64,000 nucleotides of DNA, taken from Candidatus Omnitrophota bacterium. GTDB taxonomy: Bacteria > Omnitrophota > Gorgyraeia > Zapsychrales > Zapsychraceae. The position numbers and the translations under genes are program-made. The stretch lies in NCBI GenBank assembly GCA_050250375.1, contig JBFWOS010000002.1, forward strand, positions 374,345-438,344, in the 5' to 3' direction. Positions 14,486 through 54,136 of this stretch are shown one piece after another. Positions within the stretch are counted from its first letter, which is position 1. Each line of letters begins with the position of its first letter. The notes beneath the pieces are model-generated. The model was not told the origin of the DNA. It ran no database searches and was given only the letters and a program-made list of their open reading frames with translations.

Positions 14486-14566
14486 TTGTTTTAAAGTTGC
14501 AATTTGTTGCAGTATCTTTTTATAAAGTGACTTAAGAGAAATCTTAAGGAAGGAGGGTATATCCCG

Positions 14567-14848
14567 ATGGAAGTTTTAAAAAAGACAAAAACACTAAGAG
14601 CCTTATTTGCGGCAGCTCTTGTTCCATTCATCACCGCTTGTAATGGCGGTGGAGGTGGGGGTGGTTCAGCCCTTCTTGGCGTCGGCAGTTTATTTAGTGG
14701 CACAGGAGGCGGAGGGGAAGCCGGTCCAGGTTTACTCCCCGGTGGAGACCAAGTGGCTTCACTAACGAACCCGGAACCAGCTAGCATGTTACTTGTTGGA
14801 AGTGGAATGGCAGCGATGGCCTACTTTAACAGAAAGAGAAAGCAATAA
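14567..14848 (+). CDS. small glycine-rich PEP-CTERM protein (93 aa), possible lipobox
   Basis: C-terminus NPEPASMLLVGSGMAAMAYFNRKRKQ; signal peptide ending ITAC; poly-Gly tracts; GGAGGG RBS. Confidence 0.68.
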   Translation: MEVLKKTKTLRALFAAALVPFITACNGGGGGGGSALLGVGSLFSGTGGGGEAGPGLLPGGDQVASLTNPEPASMLLVGSGMAAMAYFNRKRKQ

Positions 14849-14884
14849 GAAAAGTCTGAAATTGACGATACAAGGCAAAAAAAT

Positions 14885-14924
14885 AAGGCAGGTTATTTAA
14901 AAAATAGCTTGCCTTATTTTTTTA
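14885..14924 (+). terminator. rho-independent terminator
   Basis: AAGGCAGG ... CTTGCCTT stem followed by TTATTTTTTT immediately after the last PEP-CTERM gene. Confidence 0.6.
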
Positions 14925-15127
14925 TCTTCGAAGGAAGATATTTATAAAAAACTAAATGGTTTCCCATAAATTTTATGGATTTGTCATTGACGGTGATTAA
15001 ACCCTATGCTACGATCATTGGCATAATATATTCGTACATAATGGTTTACCCGAATTTAAGATAATCAGACGGCTTTTATTCTTTGTCTTGAATTATTGAT
15101 GTTCGGGACAAGGGGATAGGTAAATAT

Positions 15128-15991
15128 ATGAAAGAGAAAAAATCACAACCTAAAATTTTTACAATCCTGCGCTCATCCGTCAATACAATTTTCACGAATG
15201 ACGCCATCATTTTTCCATTCTTTGTCATTATATTTTTTCAACTGTTAATTTTGGAAATTTTGTATTTCATTCCGCAATGGCCGCTGAATGTCTTTTTCGG
15301 TCCGATCGTGGCGAAACTCTGGTCGGTTACCTATATGCATTATCCGTTTAATCTGGTACTATTGCCGAAATTATTTTATTATGCGCTAATCCCGGTTTAT
15401 ATTCTGTTGTCCAGTTTTTTGATTTGCATGGCGATTTCCGCCATTCTCATGATCAATAACGATGAAGAACCTAAAGTGGGGGTAATTTTCAAACGGCTGC
15501 TTCCTTCCTATATATATATCGTTGTATGTTCGGTGATCACATTTTTCTTTATCAAACTTTTTATGCAGGGTTATGACCTGATTTATGAACGGGCGATGAA
15601 TATCCGCTCCCAGGCTGGGCCGATTTACTGGCTTAAAGCAACGGTTGTTCAGGGGGCGCCTTATTTTAAAGTCCTGTTGAATGTGCTGGGAACAACCATG
15701 TTTGCTTATGTGTTTCCGCTGATTGTCATTGAAAAACGCAATGTGTTTACAGCCATCATCGAGAATTTGAAATATGTGATAACAGCCCCGATTAAGACAT
15801 TCCTCATTGTCCTTATCCCGACATTGTTATATATCCTTATTCTGTTATCCCGGGGGCATGTCCCGTTTGAAGCGGAAATCCCTGAAATGCGGGTGGTATC
15901 GATCGTGGTGAGTGTTTTGGTGATGGTTTTTATTGACGCGGTCATTTATACATCCATAACAACATTTTATTTAATCAGAAAAGGACAGTAG
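15128..15991 (+). CDS. polytopic integral membrane protein, function unknown
   Basis: 287 aa with at least 7 hydrophobic helices; no recognisable motif. Confidence 0.5.
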   Translation: MKEKKSQPKIFTILRSSVNTIFTNDAIIFPFFVIIFFQLLILEILYFIPQWPLNVFFGPIVAKLWSVTYMHYPFNLVLLPKLFYYALIPVYILLSSFLICMAISAILMINNDEEPKVGVIFKRLLPSYIYIVVCSVITFFFIKLFMQGYDLIYERAMNIRSQAGPIYWLKATVVQGAPYFKVLLNVLGTTMFAYVFPLIVIEKRNVFTAIIENLKYVITAPIKTFLIVLIPTLLYILILLSRGHVPFEAEIPEMRVVSIVVSVLVMVFIDAVIYTSITTFYLIRKGQ

Positions 15992-16888
15992 ATGAAGAAG
16001 GCCTATCTATTTTTATTCGCGATTTTACTCGGGGTTTTTGCTGTTCTGACGGCCATGGACTTTCGGGGGAATTATGCCTCTGAACGGACGTTATGGAGGA
16101 TTAATAATGTTTTCGCCAAGGCGGCCCGGGATCCAAAGATTATTCCGGAAGCAACCTTCATCCGGATCGTTAACCAGTATGAACAATTTATTAAAGATTA
16201 TCCCGATTCGACCTTGTTGCCGGTAGCCCACATCCTGATCGGCCGTGTGTATATGATTAAAAAAGAATTCGGGAAGGCCAGGGATATTTATGAGGAAGTT
16301 GTAAAGTTGTATCATGACAAACCGAATATCGCTGTGGAAGTGGTGGCTGATATCGGGAGGACGTACGCGTTGGAAGAAAACGTGAATGGTGTGATCGGAA
16401 ATTACAAACGGGTCATCCAGGATTATCCGACCACCCAGATAGGGCTTCAGGCGCCCATTTTATTGACTAAATTGTATTCGGTCCGGGGAGATTCTGTTCG
16501 GACGGAAGAGGCGTATAAACAGGCGGTCGAACATTATAAAAAATTAATTAATGATAATCCCAATGACCGGATCGAATTTGACGCGTTACGGTCGCTGGGG
16601 ACATTATATCTGACGGCCAATCAAAAAAGAAAAGCGGTGGAGACCTTCGGAAAGGTTCTTGTAAAATTTCCCCAACGGGAGTATTTGACGTCGAACAGAG
16701 TTACCACCCTTATTAAAACAATTAATACGGTTGCCATCGTTGATCTGAAAGATTATGATCTTCCGGTTTCGATTTATGAAGAATTTATCAAAGTCCATCC
16801 CGACCACCCGTTTGTGAGTTCATTTAAGGATATTATCGAAAGCGTCAAATTATTAAAAGACAGTAAATTAACGATTGATGGAAAATAA
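15992..16888 (+). CDS. secreted TPR-like helical-repeat protein
   Basis: Signal peptide MKKAYLFLFAILLGVFAVLTA; helical repeat composition resembles tol-pal YbgF-like or TPR proteins. Confidence 0.42.
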   Translation: MKKAYLFLFAILLGVFAVLTAMDFRGNYASERTLWRINNVFAKAARDPKIIPEATFIRIVNQYEQFIKDYPDSTLLPVAHILIGRVYMIKKEFGKARDIYEEVVKLYHDKPNIAVEVVADIGRTYALEENVNGVIGNYKRVIQDYPTTQIGLQAPILLTKLYSVRGDSVRTEEAYKQAVEHYKKLINDNPNDRIEFDALRSLGTLYLTANQKRKAVETFGKVLVKFPQREYLTSNRVTTLIKTINTVAIVDLKDYDLPVSIYEEFIKVHPDHPFVSSFKDIIESVKLLKDSKLTIDGK

Positions 16889-16905
16889 TAAATTGAGCCT
16901 TCGAG

Positions 16906-18192
16906 ATGAAATCAGCCATTGATGAGTTAAGCCAGGCAGAATTATTTCAGAAAATCGGTGACATTTGTGCGACAGTCAACACGGCTTTGGGAGAGAAAGA
17001 TTTACTCGACGTGTCGCTTAAAAAAATTATGGAATTGTATGGAGCGACCCGCGGTTCGGTTTTTATCATTACAGAGGCCGGCCACGAGTTGATGCTCAAG
17101 AGTTCTTTCGGTATGAAGATCCAAGAAAAAGAAAGTATGATTAAACAGATGGGGCAGGGAATCGTCGGCCGGGTTGCCCAGTTAAAAGAACCGATGTACG
17201 TGGACGATATCGCGAAAGACGGCCGTTTTAGCAATTTCAAGGGCCGGGGCAGTTATTCAACGCCTTCCTTTATCTGCGCCCCGCTGATGGTCAAAGACCA
17301 GCTGATCGGCGTGATTAACATCGCTGATAAAGAGACAGGCAACCGATTTAACGAGACCGACATGCAGCTGCTGGATTTTCTTACCACCCAGGTCGCATTA
17401 AACCACCGACGGATCCAGCTGCATCAAAAATTCAAACGCATCGTTAAAGAAAAAGAAAGTCTGAAAGACCAGCTCGGCCAGACCGACCAGGAAAAAAATA
17501 AACTTAAAAAGCAGATCGTCGTCCATGAAAAGCTGGCCACCATCGGCAAGCTCGCCGGCGGTATTGCGCATGAATTCAATAATCCGCTGGACGGAGTTAT
17601 GCGGTACACGAACCTCTGTCTGGACCATATCCAGGAAGATGAGGTGGTCCGCGGATATCTGATTGAAATCAAACACGGTTTGAACCGTATGGCCAATATT
17701 GTCCGCAACCTTCTGGCCTGTTCCCGGGAGGATTATCCCGCCCAGCAATTTGTCGAGTTGAAACAGGCGTTTGAGCATGCCCTGTCCGCGAAAATGAACG
17801 AAATATTACGCAAGAATATAGTTGTTGAACGGAATATTTCCCAGAGCATTCGTCCGATCCGGGATCTTGGCATCGAACGTATTTTTACGAATTTGATCAA
17901 TAACGCAGTGGACGCCATTGACCAGGGGGGGAAGATTTCCATGAAGGCCGAGATCCATACCCAGGTTCTTGTCATTTATTTTTCCGATACGGGGCGGGGG
18001 ATCAGTCCGGAGCATATCAGCAAGGTTTTCGAACCGTTTTTTACGACCAAGGATATCGATAAAGGCTGCGGGTTGGGTCTGACGATTGTCGGGGAAATTA
18101 TCAAATCGTATGAAGGAACCATTGATATTGAAAGTGAGGTAGGGGTGGGGACGGCTTATACCATTAAAATCCCGTTAATTGACCATGATTGA
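16906..18192 (+). CDS. GAF-domain sensor histidine kinase (PrsK-like partner of the sigma-54 regulator)
   Basis: N-terminal GAF domain, HisKA H-box (HEFNNPL) and HATPase_c N/G boxes (NLINNAVDA, DTGRGI, GLGL). Confidence 0.72.
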   Translation: MKSAIDELSQAELFQKIGDICATVNTALGEKDLLDVSLKKIMELYGATRGSVFIITEAGHELMLKSSFGMKIQEKESMIKQMGQGIVGRVAQLKEPMYVDDIAKDGRFSNFKGRGSYSTPSFICAPLMVKDQLIGVINIADKETGNRFNETDMQLLDFLTTQVALNHRRIQLHQKFKRIVKEKESLKDQLGQTDQEKNKLKKQIVVHEKLATIGKLAGGIAHEFNNPLDGVMRYTNLCLDHIQEDEVVRGYLIEIKHGLNRMANIVRNLLACSREDYPAQQFVELKQAFEHALSAKMNEILRKNIVVERNISQSIRPIRDLGIERIFTNLINNAVDAIDQGGKISMKAEIHTQVLVIYFSDTGRGISPEHISKVFEPFFTTKDIDKGCGLGLTIVGEIIKSYEGTIDIESEVGVGTAYTIKIPLIDHD

Positions 18193-19576
18193 TAAACGCG
18201 ACAACCAGAAATATAACATTATGGTGGTGGACGACGAGCCGCTGATCCGGGAATCTTTGTTCGAGATTTTCAAGATCGAAGGATTCCGGGTGCAGATGGC
18301 ATCATCCGCCGAAGAAGCGCTGAAAGTCCTGGAAAAACATCCGGCGGATATTATTATCACCGATTTGAAATTGCCGAGAATGAGCGGCCTTGAGCTGCTC
18401 CAGGAAGTAAAAAAGAATTATGAAAGAACGGAAGTCATCGTGATCACCGGGTACGGATCGATCGAGACGGCCGTAGAAGCCATGAAGATCGGCGCCTTTG
18501 ATTATATAACCAAACCGATCAATGACAGTGAGATTAAGCTTATTATCGGGAATATTGTCGGGAAACTCAGGCTGATTGAAGAAAACGTCGCTTTAAGGGG
18601 GTTGATCGCCAAGGACAAACGCAAATCGCTGGCCGGGATGATCGGTTCCAGCCAGAAAATGCAGGCGGTTTACAACATCATCGATTCCGTCGCGTCCACA
18701 AACGCCACGATCTTGATTACCGGAGAGAGCGGTACAGGTAAGGGGATGGTGGCCAAGGCAATTCATTATTGTGATGAAAACCGTAAAAATAAACCGTTTG
18801 TTGAAATCAGCTGCGGGGCGCTCTCGGAGACCCTGCTGGAAAGCGAACTCTTTGGGCATATGAAGGGGGCTTTCACGGGAGCGATCAAGGACAAAGAAGG
18901 GCGCTTTGAATACGCAAAGGGTGGAACAATCTTTCTCGATGAAATCGACGCGTTTTCTCCCAGCCTTCAGGTAAAACTGTTAAAGGTTTTGCAGGACGGT
19001 GTCTTTGAGCGGGTCGGCGATAATGTGACCCGCAAGGCCGATGCCAGGATTATCGTGGCAACCAACCAGCAGTTGACGGATCTCGTCGATGAAGGGACAT
19101 TCCGTGAAGATTTGTATTACCGGATCAATGTCATCGCGATCCAGATGCCGCCCCTGCGGGACCGCAAGGACGATATCAAAGTGCTGGTTGACTTTTTCCT
19201 GGATCTCTACAGCAAATCAAACAATAAGAAGATTTCCGGCGTTTCCGATGAAGTGATCAAGATGTTTAAGAACTACAATTGGCCGGGCAATATCCGTGAA
19301 CTGGAAAACGCCATTGAAGGGGCGGTGATTATGGCCAAGACCGAGACCGTTCAGAAACAGGATGTACCGAATTATGCCAAATTTGATGAAACGGAGATCC
19401 GGTCGACGGAGATTAAATCGTTAAAGAAGGCGACTGAACAACCTGAACGGGAGCATATTATTTCCATACTTAACGAATGTAATTGGAACAGGAACAAGGC
19501 TGCTGCTGCGTTGGGGGTTAACCGGACAACTTTATACAATAAAATGAAAAAATATCATATTCTGGATAAAAAATAA
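18179..19576 (+). CDS. sigma-54-dependent Fis-family response regulator (NtrC-type; PrsR-like)
   Basis: Receiver domain (VVDDEP...DLKLP), AAA+ sigma-54 interaction domain with GESGTGKG Walker A and GAFTGA motif, and a C-terminal Fis-type HTH. Confidence 0.88.
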   Translation: MTMIDKRDNQKYNIMVVDDEPLIRESLFEIFKIEGFRVQMASSAEEALKVLEKHPADIIITDLKLPRMSGLELLQEVKKNYERTEVIVITGYGSIETAVEAMKIGAFDYITKPINDSEIKLIIGNIVGKLRLIEENVALRGLIAKDKRKSLAGMIGSSQKMQAVYNIIDSVASTNATILITGESGTGKGMVAKAIHYCDENRKNKPFVEISCGALSETLLESELFGHMKGAFTGAIKDKEGRFEYAKGGTIFLDEIDAFSPSLQVKLLKVLQDGVFERVGDNVTRKADARIIVATNQQLTDLVDEGTFREDLYYRINVIAIQMPPLRDRKDDIKVLVDFFLDLYSKSNNKKISGVSDEVIKMFKNYNWPGNIRELENAIEGAVIMAKTETVQKQDVPNYAKFDETEIRSTEIKSLKKATEQPEREHIISILNECNWNRNKAAAALGVNRTTLYNKMKKYHILDKK

Positions 19577-19582
19577 ATACCT

Positions 19583-20608
19583 ATGACCGATAATAAATCC
19601 CGAAAATTAGCGCAACAATTAATTATCAAAGACAAGTGGTGGGACATGCTTTCACGGTTTATCGATGTCCTGCGGATTAATATTTATATTGTCGACCGGG
19701 CCGGTAAAATTATCCTCCCTCCGGAGGAGAGCAAATACGGCGGACGGTTGTTGGCCCATCCGGAGCTGGGCTTCGATATTTTCAAGGAAGGGGACCAGTT
19801 TGAGGCCCAGTTTGTGCACCACACCCACTACCTTGAAACCGTGAACCGGTATGATTTGTTCAGTTACGCGATTCCGCTCAAGACCACCGCGCAGGAAATG
19901 ATTGCGTATGTCATGGTCGGGCCGATCATCCTTAACAAGCGATTGGAGATAAGTGAATATGTAAATCAGGCCAAGTTGATCGGTGCCAATGAGGACGACG
20001 TTCTTAATGAAGTCAACGAAATCCGGGTCGTGTCCAATATCATGATGAACTCGATTATCAATCTGCTTACCGAAATTGTCCGGGACAGCATTGAAATCAA
20101 TTCACTCAACGAGTCGACAATGACTGAAAATACGGTCTCCCAGAAGATGTGGGAAAAAGAGTTTGAAACGATTGCCAATGAGATTTATTCGACGGTGCGG
20201 GTAGACGAACTGTTGATCACCCTGCTGGATGTGGCTTTGAAAATGACTGATACGGAGTGCGGTTCGGTCATGATGCTCGACCGTAACACCAATGAATTGA
20301 CCATCAAGGCGTCCAAGGGCCTGAATGATCTTAAGATTCAGGGGATCCGTGTCAAGGTTGGAGACGGGATCGCCGGACTGGTGGCCAAGGTCAAGGCCCC
20401 GCTCATCATTGATGGCGGAAATCCGGATAACCGTGTCGCCCATATGTTGACCCGGCCGGAGATTCGAAAAGCTTTAGTCATGCCATTGGTTTCCAAAAAC
20501 CGCTGTTATGGAATTCTGAATCTGCACACCAACGGGGCGAATGACAAGATTGTTGAAAATCTTGATAATCTCCAATATCTGACCCAGTTATTATCCTCAG
20601 CGTTTTAA
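19583..20608 (+). CDS. GAF domain-containing protein
   Basis: C-terminal GAF-like region (TECGSVMMLD...GIAGLVA); no output domain. Confidence 0.5.
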   Translation: MTDNKSRKLAQQLIIKDKWWDMLSRFIDVLRINIYIVDRAGKIILPPEESKYGGRLLAHPELGFDIFKEGDQFEAQFVHHTHYLETVNRYDLFSYAIPLKTTAQEMIAYVMVGPIILNKRLEISEYVNQAKLIGANEDDVLNEVNEIRVVSNIMMNSIINLLTEIVRDSIEINSLNESTMTENTVSQKMWEKEFETIANEIYSTVRVDELLITLLDVALKMTDTECGSVMMLDRNTNELTIKASKGLNDLKIQGIRVKVGDGIAGLVAKVKAPLIIDGGNPDNRVAHMLTRPEIRKALVMPLVSKNRCYGILNLHTNGANDKIVENLDNLQYLTQLLSSAF

Positions 20609-20693
20609 AAGATTTTGTATCCCTTGAAGCGGATGATATACTTTCCACATGTTATATTTTGGCAATTTATTGATACTAAATAATCTGTAAAAT

Positions 20694-21719
20694 ATGAAAA
20701 AGACAATCTTAGTGGTGGGCGGGGCTGGTTATATCGGTTCGCATGCTTTTGTCGAACTCCTGAATTCAGGGTATGACGCGGCTGTGATTGATAACTTCTC
20801 AAACGCCGAACATAAAGTGATCGGCCGGCTCAAAGAATTGACGGATACGGATGTCAGGCTTTACGAAGGCGATTGCAACGACCGGGCCTTTATGGATCAG
20901 GTTTTCCGTAAGGAGGCAGGCGTGTGCGGGGTGATCCATTTCGCGGCGTTTAAAGCGGTCGGCGAGTCCGTTAGGGATCCTCTGAAATATTACCAGAATA
21001 ATATCGGGTCCACGCTAGTCCTGCTGGATACGATGATCCGGCACCAGGTCGAACTGTTCGTTTTTTCATCGTCTTGCACCGTCTACGGACAGCCGGATCA
21101 ATTGCCGGTGACCGAATTAACGCCGAAAAAGCAGGCGCAGTCTCCGTACGGGAATACCAAAAGAATTTGCGAGGAAATCATCGAAGATTGTGTGACGAGC
21201 GGGGCGCCCATCAAGGCCGTCATGCTGAGGTATTTCAATCCCATCGGTGCTCATCCTTCAGCACTGATCGGCGAGTTACCGCTGGGTGTGCCGAATAACC
21301 TTGTTCCGTTCGTGACCCAGACCGTCGCCGGGATCAGGGAAAAACTAACGGTTTTTGGCAATGATTACAAGACTCCGGACGGCACCTGTGTTCGGGATTA
21401 TATTCATGTGGTTGATCTGGCCAAGGCTCATGTCAAGGCTCTGGATTTTCTGTTAACGGTTAAAGAGAAGAATCATTTTGATTTAATTAATGTCGGGACC
21501 GGGAAGGGGAACAGCGTTATGGAAGTGATCAAGACTTTTGAAAGGGTTACAGGGAAGAAAGTGAATCATGAAATCGGCCCCAGACGGGACGGCGACGTTG
21601 AGGCGGTCTATGCAAACGCGGACAAGGCCAAGGCTGTTATCGGTTGGGAAGCCGGGCTTACCCTGGAAGATGCATTAAAAGACGCCTGGAATTGGCAAAA
21701 AAGTCTGAAACAGTCCTAG
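20694..21719 (+). CDS. galE: UDP-glucose 4-epimerase
   Basis: N-terminal VVGGAGYIGSH Rossmann motif, YxxxK, and full-length similarity to GalE. Confidence 0.85.
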   Translation: MKKTILVVGGAGYIGSHAFVELLNSGYDAAVIDNFSNAEHKVIGRLKELTDTDVRLYEGDCNDRAFMDQVFRKEAGVCGVIHFAAFKAVGESVRDPLKYYQNNIGSTLVLLDTMIRHQVELFVFSSSCTVYGQPDQLPVTELTPKKQAQSPYGNTKRICEEIIEDCVTSGAPIKAVMLRYFNPIGAHPSALIGELPLGVPNNLVPFVTQTVAGIREKLTVFGNDYKTPDGTCVRDYIHVVDLAKAHVKALDFLLTVKEKNHFDLINVGTGKGNSVMEVIKTFERVTGKKVNHEIGPRRDGDVEAVYANADKAKAVIGWEAGLTLEDALKDAWNWQKSLKQS

Positions 21720-21727
21720 GAGATTAT

Positions 21728-22699
21728 ATGAAAACAGTTTTATTGACCGGAGCGGCCGGATTTATAGGATCCAAAACGGCAGAATTCTTGCTGGCCGATA
21801 AAATCAGGGTCGTCGGCCTTGATAATTTGAATGACTACTACGATGTGAAGATCAAGCAGCACCGCTTAAGGTCTCTTAGAGGTCATAAGAATTTTATATT
21901 CCATAAAGGGGATATAGAGAACCAGACGGTCTTAAAGAAAATATTTAAGCAATATAAATTTGATGCGGTGGTTAATCTGGCGGCCCGCGCCGGTGTCCGC
22001 TACAGCATGATCAATCCCTATGTGTATTTTTCGACGAATACCCAGGGGACGCTGAATTTGCTTGAGCTGTGCAAGGATTTTAAGATCAACAAATTTGTTC
22101 TGGCGTCAACGTCTTCTCTATATGCGGGGCAGAAAATGCCCTTTACCGAAAAATTGGCGGTCAATACGCCCATTTCTTCCTATGCCGCCAGCAAGAAGGC
22201 GGCTGAAGTGACGTGTTACACCTACCATTATTTATACGGGATTGATGTGACGATCCTGCGGTATTTCACGGTCTACGGACCAGCCGGCCGCCCTGATATG
22301 TGTATGTTCCGGTTCATTAAGTGGATTGATGAGGGTAAGCCGATTGAACTATTTGGTGATGGTTCGCAAAGCCGTGATTTTACCTATGTGGATGATATCG
22401 CCAAGGGCACGATTAAGGCGATGCGCAAGGTCGGCTTTGAGGTGATCAATCTTGGGGGCGGTAACAAACCTTACAAATTAACCTATATTATAAAGCTGAT
22501 CGAAAAGTATTTGGGAAAAAAAGTGAAGATCAGGCATTTCGATTTTCATAAAACGGATCTGAGGGCAACATGGGCCAATATTCACAAGGCCAAACAAATT
22601 CTGAAATGGGAGCCCAAAATAGGTCTGGAAGAAGGGGTCAGGCGTTGTGTGCAATGGTACGTGGACAACAAAAGCTGGGTAAAAGACGTCAAACTATAA
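21728..22699 (+). CDS. NAD-dependent nucleotide-sugar epimerase (UDP-glucuronate 4-epimerase-like)
   Basis: TGAAGFIGS Rossmann motif, YAASKKAAE catalytic YxxxK, and DVTILRYFTVYGPAGRPDM. ATG at 21728 is preceded by GGAG; the ORF-track start at 21644 overlaps galE. Confidence 0.8.
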   Translation: MKTVLLTGAAGFIGSKTAEFLLADKIRVVGLDNLNDYYDVKIKQHRLRSLRGHKNFIFHKGDIENQTVLKKIFKQYKFDAVVNLAARAGVRYSMINPYVYFSTNTQGTLNLLELCKDFKINKFVLASTSSLYAGQKMPFTEKLAVNTPISSYAASKKAAEVTCYTYHYLYGIDVTILRYFTVYGPAGRPDMCMFRFIKWIDEGKPIELFGDGSQSRDFTYVDDIAKGTIKAMRKVGFEVINLGGGNKPYKLTYIIKLIEKYLGKKVKIRHFDFHKTDLRATWANIHKAKQILKWEPKIGLEEGVRRCVQWYVDNKSWVKDVKL

Positions 22700-44582: not shown

Positions 44583-47054
44583 TCATGAACTTGGACGTGG
44601 TTCTTTTTTAGTCAACGGGATAAACAAGATACAACTGTATACCCCGGCGGCGATCAGTAAAAAACATTTGAAACCGACAATGGTCGAAAGATAAACGCTG
44701 GCGGCGCTGCCGATCACACTCATATACCCGTTTAACCCCCAGGCCAGGGGAACGAGATGGTTGCTGGTCTGCCCCAGTTTCTTCAGCCCCTGCGGGAACA
44801 AAATCCCCAAAAAAAGTCCGAGGGGAAGAATGCATAAAAATACAAAACATAACTTAACCGCCATGGGCCTGCCGAGTGTTTGTTCAATCAGGACGGGCAG
44901 AAAAAAGTAACCAAGGAGCAGCAGCACAATACAAATCAGTACGGTTGATTTCAGGGAAATCTTCATATTTTTTAAGACAGCATCCGACAAATATGATCCC
45001 AGCCCCAACGAAAATAACAGACCGGCCAGGATCACCGACAACGCGTAAATCGGGTTGGCCAGGTACAGGACGAACTGATTGAGCAGGCTGATCTCAACAA
45101 GCATAAACGCGAACCCGATGGCTGAAAAATAAATAAAAAACGGCAGATCGCGCGAAAAGACAATATCTTTGCGGTTAAGCCTGAAGATGACAGCGATGGC
45201 CGCGGCAACAAAGGCAATGATACAAAAAATAAATCCCATCATATATAAGTGAAAGCTGTAGTGCTGATTATAAATGGAAGACAAATCATTCTTGATAAAT
45301 GACCAGAACGTCTTGTCCGCGAACGAGTAGATATAGAAATAGTTTCCGATAAAAGGTTTGTCATCCGTAATCAGGGTTAAATTAAACTTCAGATCCAGGC
45401 TCAGCCGGTGCAAGACCCCCGAGAAATCCACGGATTTAACAATATCGGTAATCACATCGTGCACGGACTTTTGCAAGGGTGTGTTTCTCTCAATGTCATA
45501 ATGAGGAGTATAGATGGACGCAAGCCCCATCATTTTGATATGGCCTGACAGCCGGTCAATGTCGTTTTTGGAAAATCCGGATTTTTTAACGACCAGATAA
45601 GCGTTGTCAAACGGGGTCAGCATTTCCCGATAGATTGTATCGTTTTTTAAGAGTTCCCGGGCGGTGACCAGCGTAAAATGATCTGAGATGTCCGCGACCC
45701 CCGATTCCGCGAACGCCTGCCTGAGGACAGCGATGGTCCGGAGTTTGTTCCCGTTGACAATGACTATGGTCCCGTCCGGTTTAAGGACGCTCAGGACCCG
45801 TTTGAAGGCTTCTTTCGTATATAAAAATTGGGCGGAATTCGCGTTAACCCCGAGATAATTATTAACGGGCGACCCGGACCAGGAAAAGATGACGGTATCG
45901 TAACGTTTTTTTTGCGTCTCCAGAAATTGCCTCCCTTCCTGAACAACCATGTGCACATTCTCCAGGGCGAAAAATTCCTTCAGATGGAATTCCGGCAGGC
46001 TGACGGCTTTGTTGACAATCAGCGGGTTGAGTTCCACTCCCGTAATGTCCGCCGTCCCTGCGGAGTAACTGTAGGCCTCGAGCATGTCTTTGCCGGCCCC
46101 CGCCATCAGAATAAGAATATCCCGGGGCTGGTCGATCAGGAATCCTAACGACGTTGCCGAAAATTCTTCAAACAGCTTATACCTGAACGGTTGTTCCGGA
46201 TCAAACGCGTCCAGATGAGCGATCCCCGCCCCGTTATCAATGAGGAATTTGTATTTCAGATTGTTTTTTCCGCTCTCTTCGATCAGGGAAACACGTGAAT
46301 AGATGTTCCAGCCGGACCATAATTCCCGGAACACGGTCGACCGGTTGGAAAACACATTTCCCCGCGCGTAAAATGTCATGATGACGATGCTTAAAATCAA
46401 AAATACAAGACTGGATAATTTCGAGAATTTTGAGTAGCCGTAGCGGTTTTTTAAATAAAGCGCCATCGCAAAACACACCAGAGTCAAAAACAAGGCGATC
46501 GGATAAAGATCAAACCAGCTCATCAGCAGGCTGCCGAGGATGCAGCCCGCGGCCGCCCCGGTCAGGTCAAAATAATAAAACCGGGTGGCCTGCGCGGAAA
46601 AGATCTTGTAAATGATTGAAATGACCAGGCCCAAATAGAAAAAACAAATGGAGAAATATACGCCGGTGATCCCCGACAAAATGATGATATCCCGCAGGGA
46701 ACGGTCGAACGCCAGTACGCCCGTTTCCTGGTAATTGAAGACCGCCTCCATCGAGTTGGAGGCCTGAAGGCTCAACAGGGCGATCGCGATAACGGTGAAA
46801 TAGAAAAATAACAAGACGCCGAATGTATGGATAAAGGACGGGATGCGTTTTAACATTTCAGCGGCGGGAACATTCTTATATTTCCAGAACGCGTACACAC
46901 CCGCTGAACTCAGCCCCAAAAAAGCAAAGGTTATGGACAGAAACGGCAGTTTGAGATAAACCCGCAGGAAAGCGGAAAGGACGATTTGGACCGTCAAGAC
47001 CAGAAAGCTCAGCAGGAATAAAATGACAGGAAATTCTTTTTCCGTTTTATGCAT
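44583..47054 (-). CDS. large membrane protein with an embedded spermidine-synthase-like (class I methyltransferase-fold) domain
   Basis: About 330 aa of N-terminal TM region. The central soluble domain matches aminopropyltransferase-like proteins (GAGKDMLEAY...VELNPLIV...DTVIFSWS). C-terminal TM helices follow. Confidence 0.55.
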   Translation of the reverse strand: MHKTEKEFPVILFLLSFLVLTVQIVLSAFLRVYLKLPFLSITFAFLGLSSAGVYAFWKYKNVPAAEMLKRIPSFIHTFGVLLFFYFTVIAIALLSLQASNSMEAVFNYQETGVLAFDRSLRDIIILSGITGVYFSICFFYLGLVISIIYKIFSAQATRFYYFDLTGAAAGCILGSLLMSWFDLYPIALFLTLVCFAMALYLKNRYGYSKFSKLSSLVFLILSIVIMTFYARGNVFSNRSTVFRELWSGWNIYSRVSLIEESGKNNLKYKFLIDNGAGIAHLDAFDPEQPFRYKLFEEFSATSLGFLIDQPRDILILMAGAGKDMLEAYSYSAGTADITGVELNPLIVNKAVSLPEFHLKEFFALENVHMVVQEGRQFLETQKKRYDTVIFSWSGSPVNNYLGVNANSAQFLYTKEAFKRVLSVLKPDGTIVIVNGNKLRTIAVLRQAFAESGVADISDHFTLVTARELLKNDTIYREMLTPFDNAYLVVKKSGFSKNDIDRLSGHIKMMGLASIYTPHYDIERNTPLQKSVHDVITDIVKSVDFSGVLHRLSLDLKFNLTLITDDKPFIGNYFYIYSFADKTFWSFIKNDLSSIYNQHYSFHLYMMGFIFCIIAFVAAAIAVIFRLNRKDIVFSRDLPFFIYFSAIGFAFMLVEISLLNQFVLYLANPIYALSVILAGLLFSLGLGSYLSDAVLKNMKISLKSTVLICIVLLLLGYFFLPVLIEQTLGRPMAVKLCFVFLCILPLGLFLGILFPQGLKKLGQTSNHLVPLAWGLNGYMSVIGSAASVYLSTIVGFKCFLLIAAGVYSCILFIPLTKKEPRPSS

Positions 47055-47224
47055 ATATTAAAAAGGACACACAATCCTTAACGCTTTGGTCTTGATTCCG
47101 GGCTTGATTTTTAAACCATTATACACAAAATTGGATGAAAACACCTAAGATAATATAATTGAGGAAGCGAAGAATCCGGGGCCAGGAATCCGAGGCGCGC
47201 ACTGAATGATGAGCCCGCCTCCTC

Positions 47225-47273
47225 CCCCGCCTTAAACCGTAGTTATTTTGTAACATTGGGATTAGGGGGTGGA
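47225..47273. repeat. R1 repeat copy A (CCCCGCCTTAAACCGTAGTTATTTTGTAACATTGGGATTAGGGGGTGGA)
   Basis: 49-nt element. Identical copy at 49592..49640; partial copies at 47941..47967 and 48768..48800. Confidence 0.85.
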
Positions 47274-47298
47274 TTTATTGTACAGACAGCCTTTTCCT

Positions 47299-47829
47299 TT
47301 AACTATTTAATTTTAAAATGTCACATATTTCTTCGGGTAAATTGTCGCTATAATTCACAGAGCGATTAATTGTTTCTCCATCGCCATCAGTGTCAAAGTT
47401 AATTTCCATTAGGAAATACGGATGTTCACTTGTGACAATTTTGTGTAGCTCGATACCATGCAAATCAGTTTTAATTCTATTCAGAATTTGTACTGTAAGG
47501 GATTTATGAATGTAATAAAATCCACATTGGGAATTAGAACCTACACTTTCTAATATAAGACTTAAATGCCTGTATATTTTAAGACGTACCAATCCACATT
47601 CAAAAGGAATCATTTTAAGAAAGAAATTCTTGCTGGGGGCTCCCGATCCTGTCCAAAGAATTTCCACGTTGGGATCTTTCGATATTTTCTGATAGAAGCT
47701 TCTGGTTTTTCCACCTTGACCAAATATTAATATCTCAAAATCTTTGAAATTAATAGATTTAGAGCTTACAAAATTATTGATCGTTTCCCAAAAATTATTT
47801 CTTAGTAATTCGTCAGAAGTAGTTTTCAT
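47299..47829 (-). CDS. hypothetical protein, AT-rich cassette ORF
   Basis: 176 aa; no motif; AT-rich codon usage unlike flanking genes. Confidence 0.45.
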   Translation of the reverse strand: MKTTSDELLRNNFWETINNFVSSKSINFKDFEILIFGQGGKTRSFYQKISKDPNVEILWTGSGAPSKNFFLKMIPFECGLVRLKIYRHLSLILESVGSNSQCGFYYIHKSLTVQILNRIKTDLHGIELHKIVTSEHPYFLMEINFDTDGDGETINRSVNYSDNLPEEICDILKLNS

Positions 47830-47884
47830 TTATATTATTTAAGTGGAGGCCAATGACCTGGGCTTGTTTGTCCTGGAATAAATT

Positions 47885-47940
47885 AATAAATAGGGACGGA
47901 GGCTATTTATTGTCAAAAGCAGGGTCCGTCCCTAGTTATT
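47885..47940. repeat. H hairpin element copy 1 (TAGGGACGG-N26-CCGTCCCTA)
   Basis: Perfect 9-bp inverted repeat with a conserved loop. Second copy at 48801..48865; partial at about 48424..48478. Confidence 0.8.
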
Positions 47941-47967
47941 TATTTTGTAACATTGGGATTAGGGGTG
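47941..47967. repeat. R1 repeat copy B (3' portion, TATTTTGTAACATTGGGATTAGGGGTGG)
   Basis: Matches the 3' 27 nt of R1 with one G deleted; directly abuts the H element. Confidence 0.8.
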
Positions 47968-47987
47968 GCTGACCAATTATTTTTTAT

Positions 47988-48221
47988 CTATCCAAACTTC
48001 ATATTATCAGAAACAGTATCATCTTCTAAATAAAACTCAACGTCCCCCACTCCGCTCTTTCCATCATAATTACTCCGAAAATGAAAATGATTTTTTGTTT
48101 TATTTCCTTTATTTTCTTTTAGCCAATTAAGATTTGAGATTAATTTATCAATGTCTTTTTCTTTAAGTCCAATAAATAAGCCAAACCATCCCGTATTAAA
48201 GTTCTCAATATTTATGTTCAT
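47988..48221 (-). CDS. hypothetical small protein, cassette ORF
   Basis: 77 aa; AT-rich; no motif. Confidence 0.4.
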   Translation of the reverse strand: MNINIENFNTGWFGLFIGLKEKDIDKLISNLNWLKENKGNKTKNHFHFRSNYDGKSGVGDVEFYLEDDTVSDNMKFG

Positions 48222-48423
48222 AAATTCTTCCTTGCTTTATAAGATTGCATTATCTTGTCGGGGGAACATGTTCATTACCCCCATTCCTTTCACTATCATG
48301 CCAATGTGGCCCCAAACCTGGCTGGTTGGGTCCACCTTCTCTGTCCCATCGTCTTCTGGTCCATTCCAATGACGGTGTTTTCCGCCCGTATTATCACTTG
48401 CTTTTGGCTCTTCTGTCTACCCT

Positions 48424-48478
48424 TCTGGAGGGACCCAATCATCGGGATTGGCTGAAAAGCAGGGTCCGTCCCTAGTTA
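48424..48478. repeat. degenerate/partial H element
   Basis: AAAAGCAGGGTCCGTCCCTAGTTA is identical to the right arm of H. The left arm is degenerate (GGGACCC). The element supplies the TAG stop of the 93-aa ORF. Confidence 0.6.
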
Positions 48479-48753
48479 GTCTGATTATTTTCCATTTTCC
48501 TCTTATTATAAACATCTATTAATAGCTTTAAATCTTTTTCATATTCTTCTAAACTAGCCCAACCACTTTCTTTGGAAAAAGTTCTTTCTAACGTCAAATC
48601 CAAATAATTTGCTATTTGTTTCAATTTTTCAAACAACAAAATCTCACGATGTCGGTCTAGTAGTTTAATAATCTTATTAGACTTTCGTAATTCTTTAATT
48701 AAAGATTGAACACTCTGTAGATCTTTTTCCCATCTATCTTCATTAAAATTCAT
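48472..48753 (-). CDS. hypothetical small helical protein, cassette ORF
   Basis: 93 aa, charged, AT-rich; its stop codon lies inside the H-like element. Confidence 0.45.
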   Translation of the reverse strand: MNFNEDRWEKDLQSVQSLIKELRKSNKIIKLLDRHREILLFEKLKQIANYLDLTLERTFSKESGWASLEEYEKDLKLLIDVYNKRKMENNQTN

Positions 48754-48767
48754 ATTAATCTGACCTT

Positions 48768-48800
48768 CCCCGCCTTAAACCGTAGTTATTTTGTAACATT
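48768..48800. repeat. R1 repeat copy C (5' 33 nt), interrupted by the H element
   Basis: CCCCGCCTTAAACCGTAGTTATTTTGTAACATT followed immediately by H at 48801..48865. Confidence 0.8.
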
Positions 48801-48865
48801 TAATAAATAGGGACGGAGGCTATTTATTGGACAAATGTCAAAAGCAGGGTCCGTCCCTAGTTATT
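48801..48865. repeat. H hairpin element copy 2
   Basis: TAGGGACGGAGGCTATTTATTGGACAAATGTCAAAAGCAGGGTCCGTCCCTAG. It contains the TAG stop of the 101-aa ORF. Confidence 0.8.
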
Positions 48866-49162
48866 CACAATAATAAAAATTACCTTTTCCCAATAAAAGA
48901 CAAAGAATCCGAATATGTTTAATACAAGTATAAAAATAAATGCCTCGTATTTTTTACGCCAGAGTAGATAAGTTAAAATGAAATACAAAAATACCCATGC
49001 CCCCTGAAGAATGATTGTTGTCGGTTTGTCTAAGAGCCATGCCGAATTTGCACTCATAAAACTATGTGGATTCGACAATACAGTATGTGGAATATAAAGT
49101 GCAAAATAACACGCCACAATAGAATTTACTATAACAAGTAATGGAAGAACGAATTTAGCCAT
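48857..49162 (-). CDS. small membrane protein (3 TM), cassette ORF
   Basis: 101 aa, hydrophobic; ends in the CCCTAG of the H element. Confidence 0.45.
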   Translation of the reverse strand: MAKFVLPLLVIVNSIVACYFALYIPHTVLSNPHSFMSANSAWLLDKPTTIILQGAWVFLYFILTYLLWRKKYEAFIFILVLNIFGFFVFYWEKVIFIIVNN

Positions 49163-49198
49163 ATTCGTAAAATTAGGGACAGTGGACTAGACGAAAGT

Positions 49199-49537
49199 TT
49201 AAAAAAATGAAATAAGTGATAATAGAATCATGAAAGTTCCAAGAAAATAAAAGAACACTTCATATGCTTTTTTATCTGATAAACCATTAAGCATAAAACT
49301 CGTAAATCGTGAATTTTTGTCGAAATAATCTTCCATTGAGTAGATATAATCATTTGCCCAGAATTTTGAAAATATTAGTATATGTAATCCAATTAATAAA
49401 TAAATTATGGCACTATACAACTCAAGCGCTTCTTTTGATAAAAAATGATTTTTGAAGAAAGTCGTTAGAATGTTTATAAAAAGGTTCAGAATAAGAAGCC
49501 ATTTGGTAATTCTATAAAAGGCGGTATTAAGTTTCAT
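49199..49537 (-). CDS. small membrane protein (3 TM), cassette ORF
   Basis: 112 aa, hydrophobic, AT-rich. Confidence 0.45.
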   Translation of the reverse strand: MKLNTAFYRITKWLLILNLFINILTTFFKNHFLSKEALELYSAIIYLLIGLHILIFSKFWANDYIYSMEDYFDKNSRFTSFMLNGLSDKKAYEVFFYFLGTFMILLSLISFF

Positions 49538-49591
49538 ATAATTTGTGCTAAATCAAGGGTATGTCCCGTTCTCCCAATTTTAACAACCCTT

Positions 49592-49640
49592 CCCCGCCTT
49601 AAACCGTAGTTATTTTGTAACATTGGGATTAGGGGGTGGA
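49592..49640. repeat. R1 repeat copy D
   Basis: Identical to copy A over 49 nt. It supplies the last codons (S-T-P-stop) of the 140-aa ORF. Confidence 0.85.
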
Positions 49641-50051
49641 CTGTCTGACATGTTGTTTCCATTTGCCTTCTTTATCTCTCAATTCAAACTTTTCGACAAT
49701 ATCTTTGTTCTCACCTTCGCCACCTTCAACACCATCGCGCCCAAAGCTTTTAAAAGTGACAGAATAATCATCATTGACATAAAATAAAATTTCTCTATTC
49801 CATCCATCTTTAGTGGAATTAAGTGTACCGTGCAATTCCGGCAATAAATCTAAACTATTTGGTGGTTTATTGTTAGTTTGAGCATATTGTAATACTCTTT
49901 TTGTCAGTACCCTTATAATTGTAACAGTCGTTGCCTCGGGAGGTATTGGGTGTATGAAGAAAATAGCAACTAATACGGAAATCCCCAATAAGATGGCCAA
50001 AGCTTTGTACACCGCTCGCACGCGGATATGTTCTCGAATTGAAGTGTTCAT
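49629..50051 (-). CDS. putative immunity protein for the adjacent RHS toxin tip (N-terminal TM, soluble C-terminal domain)
   Basis: 140 aa; lies immediately downstream of the RHS C-terminal toxin domain, the canonical immunity position. No family recognised. Confidence 0.4.
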   Translation of the reverse strand: MNTSIREHIRVRAVYKALAILLGISVLVAIFFIHPIPPEATTVTIIRVLTKRVLQYAQTNNKPPNSLDLLPELHGTLNSTKDGWNREILFYVNDDYSVTFKSFGRDGVEGGEGENKDIVEKFELRDKEGKWKQHVRQSTP

Positions 50052-50080
50052 GGATCAATCATTGGATAATAATCTACTGT

Positions 50081-50599
50081 TTACTTGGTGGAGCCGCGGG
50101 GATGGCCAAACCCGAAGTCTTGAAGTAAATCGAACATTTCTTCTGCGAAATCACGACAACTCGAAGTTAATGGTCGATACGGAAAAGGTTTGCCAACCAA
50201 CGAATCCAGATAATTTTTTATTTCTGCATCTTCAAGAGGTGTGGTTTCAAGATAGTAGTCTTCTTTAATTTTCCCACCCTTCAGTGGATCTTCATAAATA
50301 TACCCTGTTAATCCGAATGGCCATGTAAATGTTGGTTCTGTGATAATTATACCGAAACTATATGAGCTATATTCACCGTTAGGATCTCCTACATTAATAC
50401 TTTCATGTGGCAATGGCTCTCCTATAGATGGCCCCTCTATCCAAACATCTAAACCAAACGGATCGATGAACTTTATCGGATTACTAACAGCATACTCATA
50501 AAGATTCAAACTATCCGCATACCCTATCGGATCCCTCTGCAAAAACCTGCCGATACTAGGGTCATACTGTCTGGCCCGATATAGCCGACCGGCAATCAA
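50081..50599 (-). CDS. orphan RHS-repeat-associated core C-terminus plus variable C-terminal toxin domain (truncated; no RHS repeat body, no ATG)
   Basis: RLYRARQYDPSIGRFLQRDPIGYADSLNLYEYAVSNPIKFIDPFGL matches the RHS/YD core-domain end (DPxGL). It is followed by about 125 aa of unique C-terminal sequence. The frame is continuous with pirin apart from a single TAA. Confidence 0.7.
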   Translation of the reverse strand: MIAGRLYRARQYDPSIGRFLQRDPIGYADSLNLYEYAVSNPIKFIDPFGLDVWIEGPSIGEPLPHESINVGDPNGEYSSYSFGIIITEPTFTWPFGLTGYIYEDPLKGGKIKEDYYLETTPLEDAEIKNYLDSLVGKPFPYRPLTSSCRDFAEEMFDLLQDFGFGHPRGSTK

Positions 50600-50605
50600 T
50601 CCATA

Positions 50606-51325
50606 TTATTTAAGATCAAAGAGCAAGAATTCAGAGGCTTCGGGGGATTTGAGAGTGATCTCTTGGGCGTGTTCAATCGCCGCGCCGTCCCCTGTCTTCA
50701 GGGATTGCCCGTCCAGGGTCAATTCCCCTGTAATCATCTGCACCCAGAGGCCGCGGTCCGGTGTTGCCGGATAAACCCTGCTCTGCCCCCGGGCCAATTG
50801 CCCGTGATAAACCCGCGCATCCTGGCTGATGAACAAACAGCGGTCCTCTTCGCGGTTCGACGCAAAAAGGGTTAAGCCGCGGTCTTTTTTTAAACCGGAT
50901 AACGGCAGCTGCTGATAACGCGGTTTCAACCCTTTTTCTCCCGGGAAGATCCATATCTGCAGGAAGTGAACGGGATGGGCGGCTGACGGATTAAATTCGC
51001 TATGGGTAATCCCGGTCCCGGCGCAGATCGCCTGGACCTCGCCGGCCGTCAGCACCGACCCGTGGCCGAGGCTGTCTTTGTGCTCAAGTTCCCCTTCGAT
51101 CACATACGAGATGATCTCCATGTCCCGGTGGGGATGCGCGTCAAACCCGTTGCCGGGCTGGACCGTGTCGTCATTGATGACCCGCAGGGTCCTGAAACGC
51201 GTATGCTCCGGGTCCTGATATTCCCCGAACGAAAAGGTGTGGTATGAATCCAGCCAGCCGAAATCCGCGTGCCCGCGTCCGTCCGCGTGCCGGACGGTTA
51301 TCGTTTTATTTTTGAGTTCACTCAT
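50606..51325 (-). CDS. pirin-family protein
   Basis: Bicupin with HPHRDMEI...E metal-binding motif; full length (239 aa). Confidence 0.85.
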   Translation of the reverse strand: MSELKNKTITVRHADGRGHADFGWLDSYHTFSFGEYQDPEHTRFRTLRVINDDTVQPGNGFDAHPHRDMEIISYVIEGELEHKDSLGHGSVLTAGEVQAICAGTGITHSEFNPSAAHPVHFLQIWIFPGEKGLKPRYQQLPLSGLKKDRGLTLFASNREEDRCLFISQDARVYHGQLARGQSRVYPATPDRGLWVQMITGELTLDGQSLKTGDGAAIEHAQEITLKSPEASEFLLFDLK

Positions 51326-52732: not shown

Positions 52733-52990
52733 TCACGAGTCTGTTTTATTGCCGGTGTTGCTGATAAAGATCAGAAGAATACAGGTCACGACAATAATGC
52801 CGACGACTTTGATGGTTTTGAACGCGAATTCTTTTGCCGTTTCCCCGGTAAAAATATCAAGGACAAAACAGATACTCACACTGGCCAGAATGAGCAGTAA
52901 GAACGTCGTGGATACTTTCAGGATCATTTCCATTTGTTTGTTCATAAGCCCTCCGCGGGTGAACTTTTTGGAACCATTATAGCGTAACAA
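52733..52990 (-). CDS. small membrane protein
   Basis: Two TM helices. Confidence 0.3.
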   Translation of the reverse strand: MLRYNGSKKFTRGGLMNKQMEMILKVSTTFLLLILASVSICFVLDIFTGETAKEFAFKTIKVVGIIVVTCILLIFISNTGNKTDS

Positions 52991-53728: not shown

Positions 53729-54136
53729 TTAATCTGCCTGAAAATCGGAAAATAATGCTTTTAGGTTTTTTCGGGTGAAAAAACAAATAATCAATATATC
53801 AAAAATAAGGCCTAAATAAATTTGCCGGAATTCCCTATTGGTTATTAAATAATATTTTGAATAAATGACGGTCCCCAGGATTATATGAAGGCCGTCCAAG
53901 ATCGTTAATCGAATAAGGAGTTGTCGAAACTTATAACCGATGAACAAAATAAAATTGCCAAGTATGAAAAATCCCAGGTTTATGACAAATGATACTATGG
54001 ACAGGATTTTTACCGCTGTCGGGTAATTGATAAATTTGTTCTGCCATTCAAAGTTTGAAAAATATCCAGACAAGGAAAGTGAAGCGAACAAAATAAGAAT
54101 TACACACAATATCTTAACTAAAAAACGGAGTTTCAT
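53729..54136 (-). CDS. integral membrane protein
   Basis: Four hydrophobic helices. Confidence 0.3.
   Translation of the reverse strand: MKLRFLVKILCVILILFASLSLSGYFSNFEWQNKFINYPTAVKILSIVSFVINLGFFILGNFILFIGYKFRQLLIRLTILDGLHIILGTVIYSKYYLITNREFRQIYLGLIFDILIICFFTRKNLKALFSDFQAD

Follow-up and report, generated by a model that had tools for sequence, protein, structure and literature searches.

How a row of small, mutually unrelated genes comes to stand behind an orphan toxin fragment, with a short repeated element at the end of every unit, is the question raised by an islet of 3.4 kb in the DNA of a Candidatus Omnitrophota bacterium. The islet lies at ~47.2-50.6 kb of a stretch of 64,000 nt (the window, hereafter), with all of its genes on the minus strand, between a pirin gene (50606-51325, minus strand; complete, with the Pfam domains Pirin and Pirin_C_2) and a gene (44583-47054) whose product is a membrane protein of 823 aa with a spermidine-synthase-like domain. 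Public gene calls and two distant stretches used for comparison (L017 and L018) belong to contig JBFXCX010000001.1 (1.006 Mb; assembly GCA_050181705.1), from a Candidatus Omnitrophota metagenome-assembled genome (MAG). The description that suits the locus best is an orphan RHS toxin islet in Omnitrophota that carries an integron/rAID-like array of small genes bounded by repeats. Tentatively, and at a little under even chances, we read it as the outcome of cassette accretion, of an integron- or rAID-like kind, next to an orphan toxin-immunity pair; the composition of the repeat sites between the genes is what chiefly argues for this.

The region had been annotated initially as seven minus-strand small open reading frames (ORFs) of foreign, AT-rich character between pirin and the membrane protein, and both points were confirmed. 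In the coding direction the ORFs encode 172 (the RHS tip), 140, 112, 101, 93, 77, and 176 aa, and the order of features is RHS tip, ORF140, site A, ORF112, ORF101, site B, ORF93, site C, a spacer, ORF77, site D, ORF176, site E, and host DNA. That the islet is compositionally foreign is supported by its GC content, the lowest of the whole window (0.25-0.40, or 0.33-0.36 per kb), with a window mean of ~0.46 and flanks of 0.50-0.60. By gene, the GC content is 0.26-0.38 in six of the seven ORFs and 0.42 in the RHS tip, and the GC content at third codon positions (GC3) is 0.23-0.35 in the seven islet ORFs versus 0.58-0.69 in four flanking genes. GC-rich, host-like DNA resumes directly past the last repeat element, R1 copy E.

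Two repeat families, R1 and H, make up the five sites, all read here on the minus strand. R1, first taken to be present as four copies of 49 nt, turned out to occur as two full copies of 53 nt (49640..49588 and 47273..47221), 98% identical, and two half copies, namely a right half of 37 nt (48800..48764) and a left half of 26-29 nt (47965..47937). Of the two full and one degenerate copies of H that had been proposed, the full ones stand (48865..48800 and 47940..47883); they are 58-66 nt long and identical except for an 8-nt loop indel, with a nearly perfect stem and a loop of 24-32 nt, whereas the third consists of the left arm only (24-30 nt, 48480..48451). Overall, the copies of the elements are 98-100% identical. 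Site A (49588..49640) is the full R1 copy A, composed of a left arm, a 15-nt core (AATGTTACAAAATAA), and a right arm (CTACGGTTTAAGGCGGGGAAGG). Site B (48764..48865) is a composite, in which H (48865..48800) is followed by the 15-nt core and the R1 right arm (48800..48764), and site D (47880..47965) is a composite of the other kind, with the R1 left arm and the 15-nt core (47965..47937) followed by H (47940..47883). Site C (48451..48480) is a half H, with only the left arm and the start of the loop (ACTAACTAGGGACGGACCCTGCTTTT), and site E (47221..47273), the full R1 copy E and the last element of the array, borders the host-like DNA.

The core occurs in exactly four copies, 824, 846, and 697 nt apart, and three types of site can be distinguished around it: left arm-core-right arm twice (A and E), H-core-right arm (B), and left arm-core-H (D). 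The patterns of core with arms can be written as CCCTAATCCCAATGTTACAAAATAACTACGG and as TAGGGACGGA-N20-45-TCCGTCCCTA. H folds significantly as single-stranded DNA (z -4.3; 0/200 shuffles), and composite site B has a z-score of -2.0. R1 shows a weak two-fold symmetry about the core (14/25 pairs, p ~0.011), and AATAACTA.GG is common to the H left arm and the R1 right arm, right beside the core (p ~0.007); the shared motif and the symmetry are modest hints of candidate protein-binding half-sites. The proposal that each unit carries a conserved boundary element was also upheld, an element lying at, or no more than 25 nt from, the last stop codon of every unit: the stop codons of ORF140, ORF101, and ORF93 fall inside elements, and ORF77 and ORF176 end 22 and 25 nt short of their elements.

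The repeats were detected only in the islet. Four seeds of 21-28 nt are each present in two to three copies, all of them in the islet within the 64 kb, with 0 expected in shuffled sequence. Searches with blastn-short and nhmmer detected no copy of R1 or H, even a degenerate one, in the other 60 kb of the window, nor any copy in 45 kb from the two distant places on the same contig (L017 and L018), which were reached via paralogs of the 823-aa gene. Overall, ~105 kb, or ~11% of the contig, was examined for repeats. Thus, as far as these stretches go, the elements are not the generic REP-like repeats, scattered over the genome, that had been named as the finding that would undo the cassette idea, and the many dispersed copies characteristic of repetitive extragenic palindromes (REPs) and bacterial interspersed mosaic elements (BIMEs) are lacking, the count beyond the islet being 0. 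At a density of 1 per 10 kb, a dispersed family should have left ~10 copies in the sampled DNA; a sparse family, at 1 per 50 kb or fewer, is possible. Elsewhere, three scans of viral contigs gave no repeat matches, and a 21-mer of H had 0 matches in JGI metagenomes. A 21-mer of the R1 left arm matched once among GTDB representatives (the source genome is not among them), in antisense to a transmembrane (TM) protein gene of a Clostridia MAG; the gene is unrelated, and the match was taken as chance.

The set of site types is the strongest single clue to the origin of the array, as the exchange of arms at a shared core fits conservative site-specific recombination. Such recombination leaves arm swaps, as when attB and attP give attL and attR, or when attC recombines with attC in integrons. 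Furthermore, the unit size of 697-846 nt is typical of cassettes, and the cargo, being unrelated proteins with no family match (ORF176 is an ORFan), fits typical cassette cargo.

Under the cassette reading, the 3.4-kb islet would have been acquired horizontally and inserted exactly after the pirin stop codon. The first module would be an orphan polymorphic-toxin pair, in which an RHS core end carrying a PPPDE-like Cys/His peptidase domain is followed by ORF140, and three more units of 0.7-0.85 kb (ORF112 with ORF101; ORF93 with the spacer and ORF77; ORF176) would have been joined head to tail at the core, whose arms are of an R type (R1 left and right) or an H type (the H arms). Conservative recombination at this core would have added the units or changed their order, with sites B and D being the reciprocal products of an R-type × H-type exchange, and the full R1 sites A and E being R × R joints. 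The recombination enzyme would work in trans, as with integrase-less clusters of integron cassettes. The array is probably transcribed via read-through from the PNPOx-pirin operon, because scans detect no promoter or terminator of the array's own, and the elements would provide the stop codons of three ORFs, with the R right arm providing a Shine-Dalgarno-like sequence. A more ambitious form of this reading is a new cassette-capture system, neither integron nor rAID, in which promoterless cassettes are exchanged at the 15-nt core with interchangeable arms (one of them hairpin-forming) by a recombinase located elsewhere, so that defence or immunity genes gather beside an orphan RHS toxin in Omnitrophota; this we regard as unlikely. 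The "different cassette-accumulation mechanism" of the initial annotation is thus kept as a hypothesis, since it is based on a single locus, neither R1 nor H having been found in a second genome.

The islet opens with the RHS tip (50081..50599, minus strand; 172 aa), which matches positions 33-76 of the 76 in TIGR03696 (E 3.9e-16), in agreement with the earlier recognition of an RHS core end (DPFGL) with a C-terminal toxin domain. It comprises the last ~44 RHS core residues (…YDPSIGRFLQRDPIGY…IDPFGL) and a C-terminal toxin domain of ~120 aa, and it starts with a TTG codon 7 nt past the pirin stop. The tip is in frame with pirin, with only TAA TAT GGA between them (50599-50611), and reading through one stop codon would fuse both; the shared frame, at a one-in-three chance, may be coincidence. 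Core ends of solved Rhs/TccC structures in the PDB align with the N-terminal part of the tip only. Because the family match covers only the last 44 RHS core positions, and the structures align only there, the first ORF is, as judged from its sequence, an orphan tip, and without the full RHS shell it would not be a deliverable toxin.

The toxin domain itself is weakly similar to PPPDE/Peptidase_C97 (PF05903, E 0.008; 8e-6 for the homolog P0002). Only three relatives, at 37-54% identity, were found among 5.8 billion proteins, and H65 and C148 are invariant among the four homologs. An AlphaFold model from the four sequences reached a predicted local distance difference test score (pLDDT) of 42, too poor for fold searches. 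The relatives are likewise short orphan tips, located beside RHS or YD-shell fragments. The islet thus contains what defines an orphan RHS module in its coding sequence, that is, a PxxxxDPxGL core end with a variable toxin domain; there is, however, no full-length rhs gene upstream of the module to recombine with, as the upstream gene is pirin, no RHS/YD-repeat protein occurs among the window ORFs, and none of this genome occurs among the toxin homologs.

ORF140 (49629..50051, minus strand) starts 29 nt past the toxin, which is the immunity position that had been assigned to it, and its stop codon lies inside R1 copy A. The small ORFs were said to have no recognisable housekeeping motif, and three of them to consist mostly of TM helices. 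Neither description suits ORF140, in which a single N-terminal TM anchor precedes a soluble, T2SSG-like globular domain (PF08334, 22.7 bits with a gathering score of 21); the first does hold for the other small ORFs, which have no family match, and the second for ORF112 and ORF101, with ~3 TM segments each. The ORF140 family is large (669 representatives at E<=1e-3, 215 at <=1e-10), its sampled members all match T2SSG, and T2SSG-like proteins of this family have no known immunity role. Two members were placed in their surroundings. The first, behind a DUF3592 gene, has no toxin in its vicinity. The second, P0221, shares 41% identity with ORF140 and is part of an array of small genes, co-oriented and of lower GC content, next to a BrnT/BrnA toxin-antitoxin pair on the JGI contig Ga0654425_0005929 (L024; array genes 4228-7039). 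Two elements in that array (5176-5272 and 6297-6392, 1120 nt apart) are attC-like imperfect palindromes, with R''-like GGCTAAC/GCACAAC and R'-like GTTGTAC boxes and covarying inner arms (TTCAAAT/ATTTGAA versus CGCTGTT/AACAGCA), so that the sequence of the locus suggests a cassette cluster of the integron type; its 8-kb contig carries no integrase. Because P0221 sits in an attC-type array, the ORF140 family appears to travel as cassette cargo.

By its position, ORF140 is a putative cognate immunity gene. An assignment through homology was rejected, since the genes that follow the toxin homologs P0002 and P0003 show no relation to ORF140, ORF112, or ORF101, and for that reason position is the basis of the assignment.

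The remaining units hold five further minus-strand ORFs that are not paralogs of ORF140 or of one another. ORF112 (49199..49537; GC 0.26) and ORF101 (48857..49162; stop codon, AAC TAG, inside H) are the TM proteins mentioned above. Both, with a GC content of 0.26-0.32, are missing from the public gene calls, which leave a gap of 876 nt there (L001 8201-9077); because they are uncalled, and because their strand is T-rich, their status as genes is uncertain. ORF93 (48472..48753) encodes a charged, helical small protein, with its stop codon (AAC TAG) inside the half H, and ORF77 (47988..48221) a small soluble protein preceded by a good Shine-Dalgarno sequence (AAGGAAG). None of these four has a match in Pfam, NCBIfam, PHROG, or PADLOC, the collections searched, and ORF93 and ORF77 have no significant match in the PDB or, by tblastn, among plasmids. 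ORF176 (47299..47829), a soluble ORFan that matched only itself among 5.8 billion proteins, likewise gave no Pfam, NCBIfam, PHROG, PADLOC, PDB, or plasmid match, and its AF2 single-sequence model (pLDDT 35) was too poor for fold searches.

Between site C and ORF77 lies a spacer of ~230 nt (48222..48450) that is purine-rich on the minus strand and, at a GC content of 0.43, richer in GC than the remaining islet. It is non-coding as far as seen: all three plus-strand frames are open at 48245-48372, giving three overlapping ORFs of 66-76 codons, because the minus strand is strongly purine-biased and not because of coding. Its fold is not significant (z-score -0.84), and it has no Rfam match even at E<=10. 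A stretch resembling the R1 left arm after site C, within the spacer, was not significant. For the window as a whole, no tRNA or tmRNA genes were detected and there were 0 Rfam matches at the gathering score; at E<=10, only noise was found in the islet.

Several known systems resemble the array in part. Recombinase-linked arrays of orphan immunity genes in Bacteroidales, termed rAID-1 (recombinase-associated acquired interbacterial defence; Ross et al.), have a low GC content and conserved intergenic motifs (10.1101/471110; PMC12247911), and are defined by a 5' tyrosine recombinase resembling XerD, with at least 44% identity to BF9343_RS08045 and by at least two co-directional downstream genes with a GC content of no more than 41% and conserved intergenic motifs (10.1101/471110). 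The islet shares with them the co-oriented short genes (77-176 codons), the GC content below that of the host, the repeated intergenic sequences, and the link to a polymorphic toxin, so that low-GC co-directional genes with intergenic motifs are present in both. However, it has no XerD-like recombinase in 64 kb and no homologs of immunity genes, of T6SS or other kinds, by Pfam, NCBIfam, or PADLOC; its host belongs to Omnitrophota rather than Bacteroidales; it has only three to four units; and the rAID-1 repeats are unrelated to R1 and H as far as could be judged from a comparison made without the sequences of the rAID motifs.

With clusters of attC sites lacking integrases (CALINs) and sedentary chromosomal integrons, the islet has in common units of 0.7-0.85 kb holding one or two promoterless, co-oriented ORFs, mostly without a family match, and an element after each unit that often holds the stop codon. 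Its near-identical elements within one array recall sedentary integrons in particular. Co-oriented promoterless small ORFs, with one site per unit of ~0.5-1 kb, are thus seen as in integrons; the hybrid sites are consistent with site-by-site exchange, and an ORF140 homolog is cargo of an attC array (L024). In contrast to integrons, the window holds neither IntI nor attI, the elements are without RYYYAAC/GTTRRRY boxes, and R1 is not a hairpin. The shape that defines attC, with boxes at the base of an imperfect 57-141-nt hairpin with extrahelical bases, is not that of H either: H starts with AATAAC, its partner arm has TTTATT and no GTT, and the sole mismatch of the stem lies there, at the C/G of the AAC/GTT triplet, the stem being otherwise perfect and without bulged bases. 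Moreover, the core shared by the islet sites lies outside the hairpin, on either side of it.

The orphan rhs-CT/rhsI clusters of Enterobacteria, reportedly described by Poole et al. in 2011 and Koskiniemi et al. in 2014, resemble the islet in the core-end fragment (…DPxGL) with a variable C-terminal domain, the small gene in the immunity position, and the AT-rich DNA. They differ in that the upstream neighbour of the islet is pirin, with no full-length rhs, that its repeats are not core-coding sequence for tip swapping, and that five further ORFs are unpaired with toxin fragments. Because there is no parent rhs gene, and because the repeats are not core-coding sequence, the locus qualifies as an orphan RHS tip and not as a classical orphan cluster. 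Features of IS200/IS605-derived hairpin elements (PATE/MITE) were also sought, these being defined by subterminal hairpins at each end, by TnpA/TnpB or a remnant of omega RNA, and by insertion 3' of a set tetra- or pentanucleotide: two H hairpins in direct orientation bracket ORF93-ORF77, and the core contains TTAC, but the window contains no TnpA or TnpB, and the enclosed spacer is unstructured and has no Rfam match. A dif/Xer-like core was considered by eye and rejected, since only ATGTTA resembles a XerD arm and there is no XerC arm. By analogy, then, the islet would be most like rAID-1 and integrase-less integron clusters, yet it lacks what defines either.

A serious rival to cassette accretion, possible though on the doubtful side, is that R1 and H are passive REP/BIME- or MITE-like mosaics (MITE, miniature inverted-repeat transposable element) at gene ends, from an AT-rich donor or from this lineage, that were carried along with contiguous foreign DNA and took no part in assembling the genes. 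BIMEs combine a hairpin with conserved linker motifs in mosaic arrangements at the 3' ends of genes, and REPs and MITEs often overlap stop codons. The islet elements, with a short, strong, and almost perfect hairpin and linker motifs in several arrangements, overlapping stop codons at gene 3' ends and with no recombinase nearby, fit this description. They depart from it in being undispersed, with five sites in 3.4 kb, one per unit, and none in the rest of the ~105 kb, in having no RAYT or TnpA for company, and in the 58-66-nt length and large loop of H. Furthermore, they are absent from viral contigs, JGI metagenomes, and GTDB representatives save for single chance-level 21-mers, and their copies are 98-100% identical, whereas relics should drift. 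The elements might instead be expression modules, with H as an RNA stem-loop for termination, attenuation, or stabilisation, and with the right arm of R1 as a 5' untranslated region with a ribosome-binding site, spread by local duplication or gene conversion within one operon. In line with this, H is followed by a U-rich run, the R1 right arm of site B places the Shine-Dalgarno-like GGGGAAGG 10 nt before the ORF93 start, and the ORFs, which all share one orientation, come straight after the PNPOx-pirin operon, without any enrichment of predicted promoters. Nevertheless, we consider it quite unlikely, as H has a loop of 24-32 nt and was missed by the terminator scan, R1 is not significantly structured as RNA or DNA, and the right arm of R1 is separated from the ORF112 start by 50 nt and, past copy E, has no islet gene behind it; reciprocal hybrid sites, and identical boundaries of unrelated ORFs, would also go unexplained.

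Displacement scars, in which R1 would be a relic of a toxin-gene 3' end that offered homology for the replacement of old toxin-immunity modules by new ones, in the manner of classical rhs/cdi orphan clusters, appear improbable. This explanation derives its interest from the sole metagenome match to the 21-mer at the R1 junction (22 nt with copy B), at L015 826-847 (JGI Ga0209640_10058797). The match falls in the coding sequence for the C-terminal toxin domain of an RHS protein of 832 aa, is read there as MLQNNYG, and is aligned by nhmmer over 32 nt; long direct repeats at other orphan RHS loci (141 nt in L006; 101-219 nt in L009) also speak for it. However, L015 and the islet have no protein-level similarity past 8 residues, one exact match of an AT-rich 21-mer is about what chance provides (by a rough estimate 0.2-1 expected, the total length of the collection not being known), and a parallel scan gave an equally good match in Clostridia, though the place of the L015 match is a striking coincidence; the repeats, moreover, are not RHS core-coding sequence, and the window has no full-length rhs to recombine with. 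The L006 locus (GCA_964359575.1) is an islet in its own right, in which the orphan RHS tip P0008 is accompanied by a Transglut_core2 gene and a pair of small ORFs. It lies within a FabA/ApeP-like gene that belongs to a polyketide-like operon, and is cleanly bounded by a 141-nt direct repeat (98% identical) of the 5' part of that gene (5393-5533 and 7989-8129). Finally, a chimeric insertion into a MAG contig at repeats would be an assembly artefact, for which the MAG source, the breaking of independent Logan contigs inside R1 (L002 and L004), and the retrieval of no independent contig across the pirin/RHS or R1/host joints might be adduced. It is very improbable, because the Logan contig L002 independently has sites B to E in the same order and host-like sequence lies on both sides of the islet, within a 1.0-Mb contig; the breaks, for their part, fall where any k-mer assembler would stop, at repeats of more than 31 nt.

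Cassette accretion, in turn, has to be held against a body of observations that weigh on the other side. All of the evidence comes from one locus, with five sites, in one MAG, and the scans described above revealed no second genome or metagenome contig with R1 or H, and hence no sign of mobility, of cassette gain or loss, or of sites being conserved. The initial annotation had already remarked on the lack of a recombinase and of attC core sites, and rightly so: among all window ORFs of at least 180 aa, examined with Pfam or through the precomputed Pfam hits of the contig gene calls, there is no integrase, recombinase, resolvase, transposase, or HUH enzyme, and the canonical attC boxes R'' (RYYYAAC) and R' (GTTRRRY) are absent from R1 and H as judged by reading the sequences and their folds. 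The fold of R1 is not significant (z -0.4). The whole islet is not bounded by sites, because nothing left of R1 or H could be detected at the pirin/RHS edge, where a candidate remnant was rejected when 44% of random windows reached its local alignment score. Sites of types A/E, B, and D could also result from the precise gain or loss of H between direct repeats of 14-15 nt. As for cargo, the view of the small ORFs as immunity genes found no support: no islet ORF matches a known immunity family in Pfam, NCBIfam, or PADLOC, and the closest toxin homologs, P0002 and P0003, are followed by small multi-TM proteins of other kinds; in addition, ORF112 and ORF101 may not be genes.

The surroundings of the islet consist of housekeeping and envelope genes, including an exosortase/PEP-CTERM polysaccharide locus, a xanthine-dehydrogenase-like cluster, PNPOx, pirin, transporters, and SSB. 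The polysaccharide locus (window 1-14500; GC 0.38-0.48) encodes an EpsH exosortase, a DUF3485 protein, a PEP-CTERM protein, a sugar transferase, and many glycosyltransferases. Two minus-strand ORFs near the islet lie in dips of GC content and have no Pfam match, namely a multi-TM ORF of 135 aa (53729-54136; local GC 0.34) and one of 85 aa (52733-52990; local GC ~0.42), and they may be other small foreign inserts. The 823-aa membrane protein has many homologs, in Omnitrophota and in a few other candidate phyla, and two paralogs (38-39% identity) on the same 1-Mb contig (L017 10001-12469 and L018 10001-12475). A comparison with an empty site by way of its gene was uninformative, as the closest ortholog (69% identical) lies on a 3.5-kb contig behind another upstream gene (DUF5329). 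The L018 stretch of the contig also contains a giant gene of at least 3329 aa (14369-22475), with faint HEAT repeats, that continues past the fetched sequence, in agreement with the giant genes reported in Omnitrophota (10.1101/2023.11.21.568195).

If the repeats were merely passive, the locus would be an ordinary orphan toxin islet with decorative repeats. If, on the other hand, the mosaic sites are true joints, cassette accretion of toxin-linked small genes would occur outside integrons and outside Bacteroidales, at a new kind of site. Its host would be a member of a little-known phylum whose bacteria may be predatory or dependent on hosts, and its 15-nt core with two arm types would offer a simple, testable substrate.

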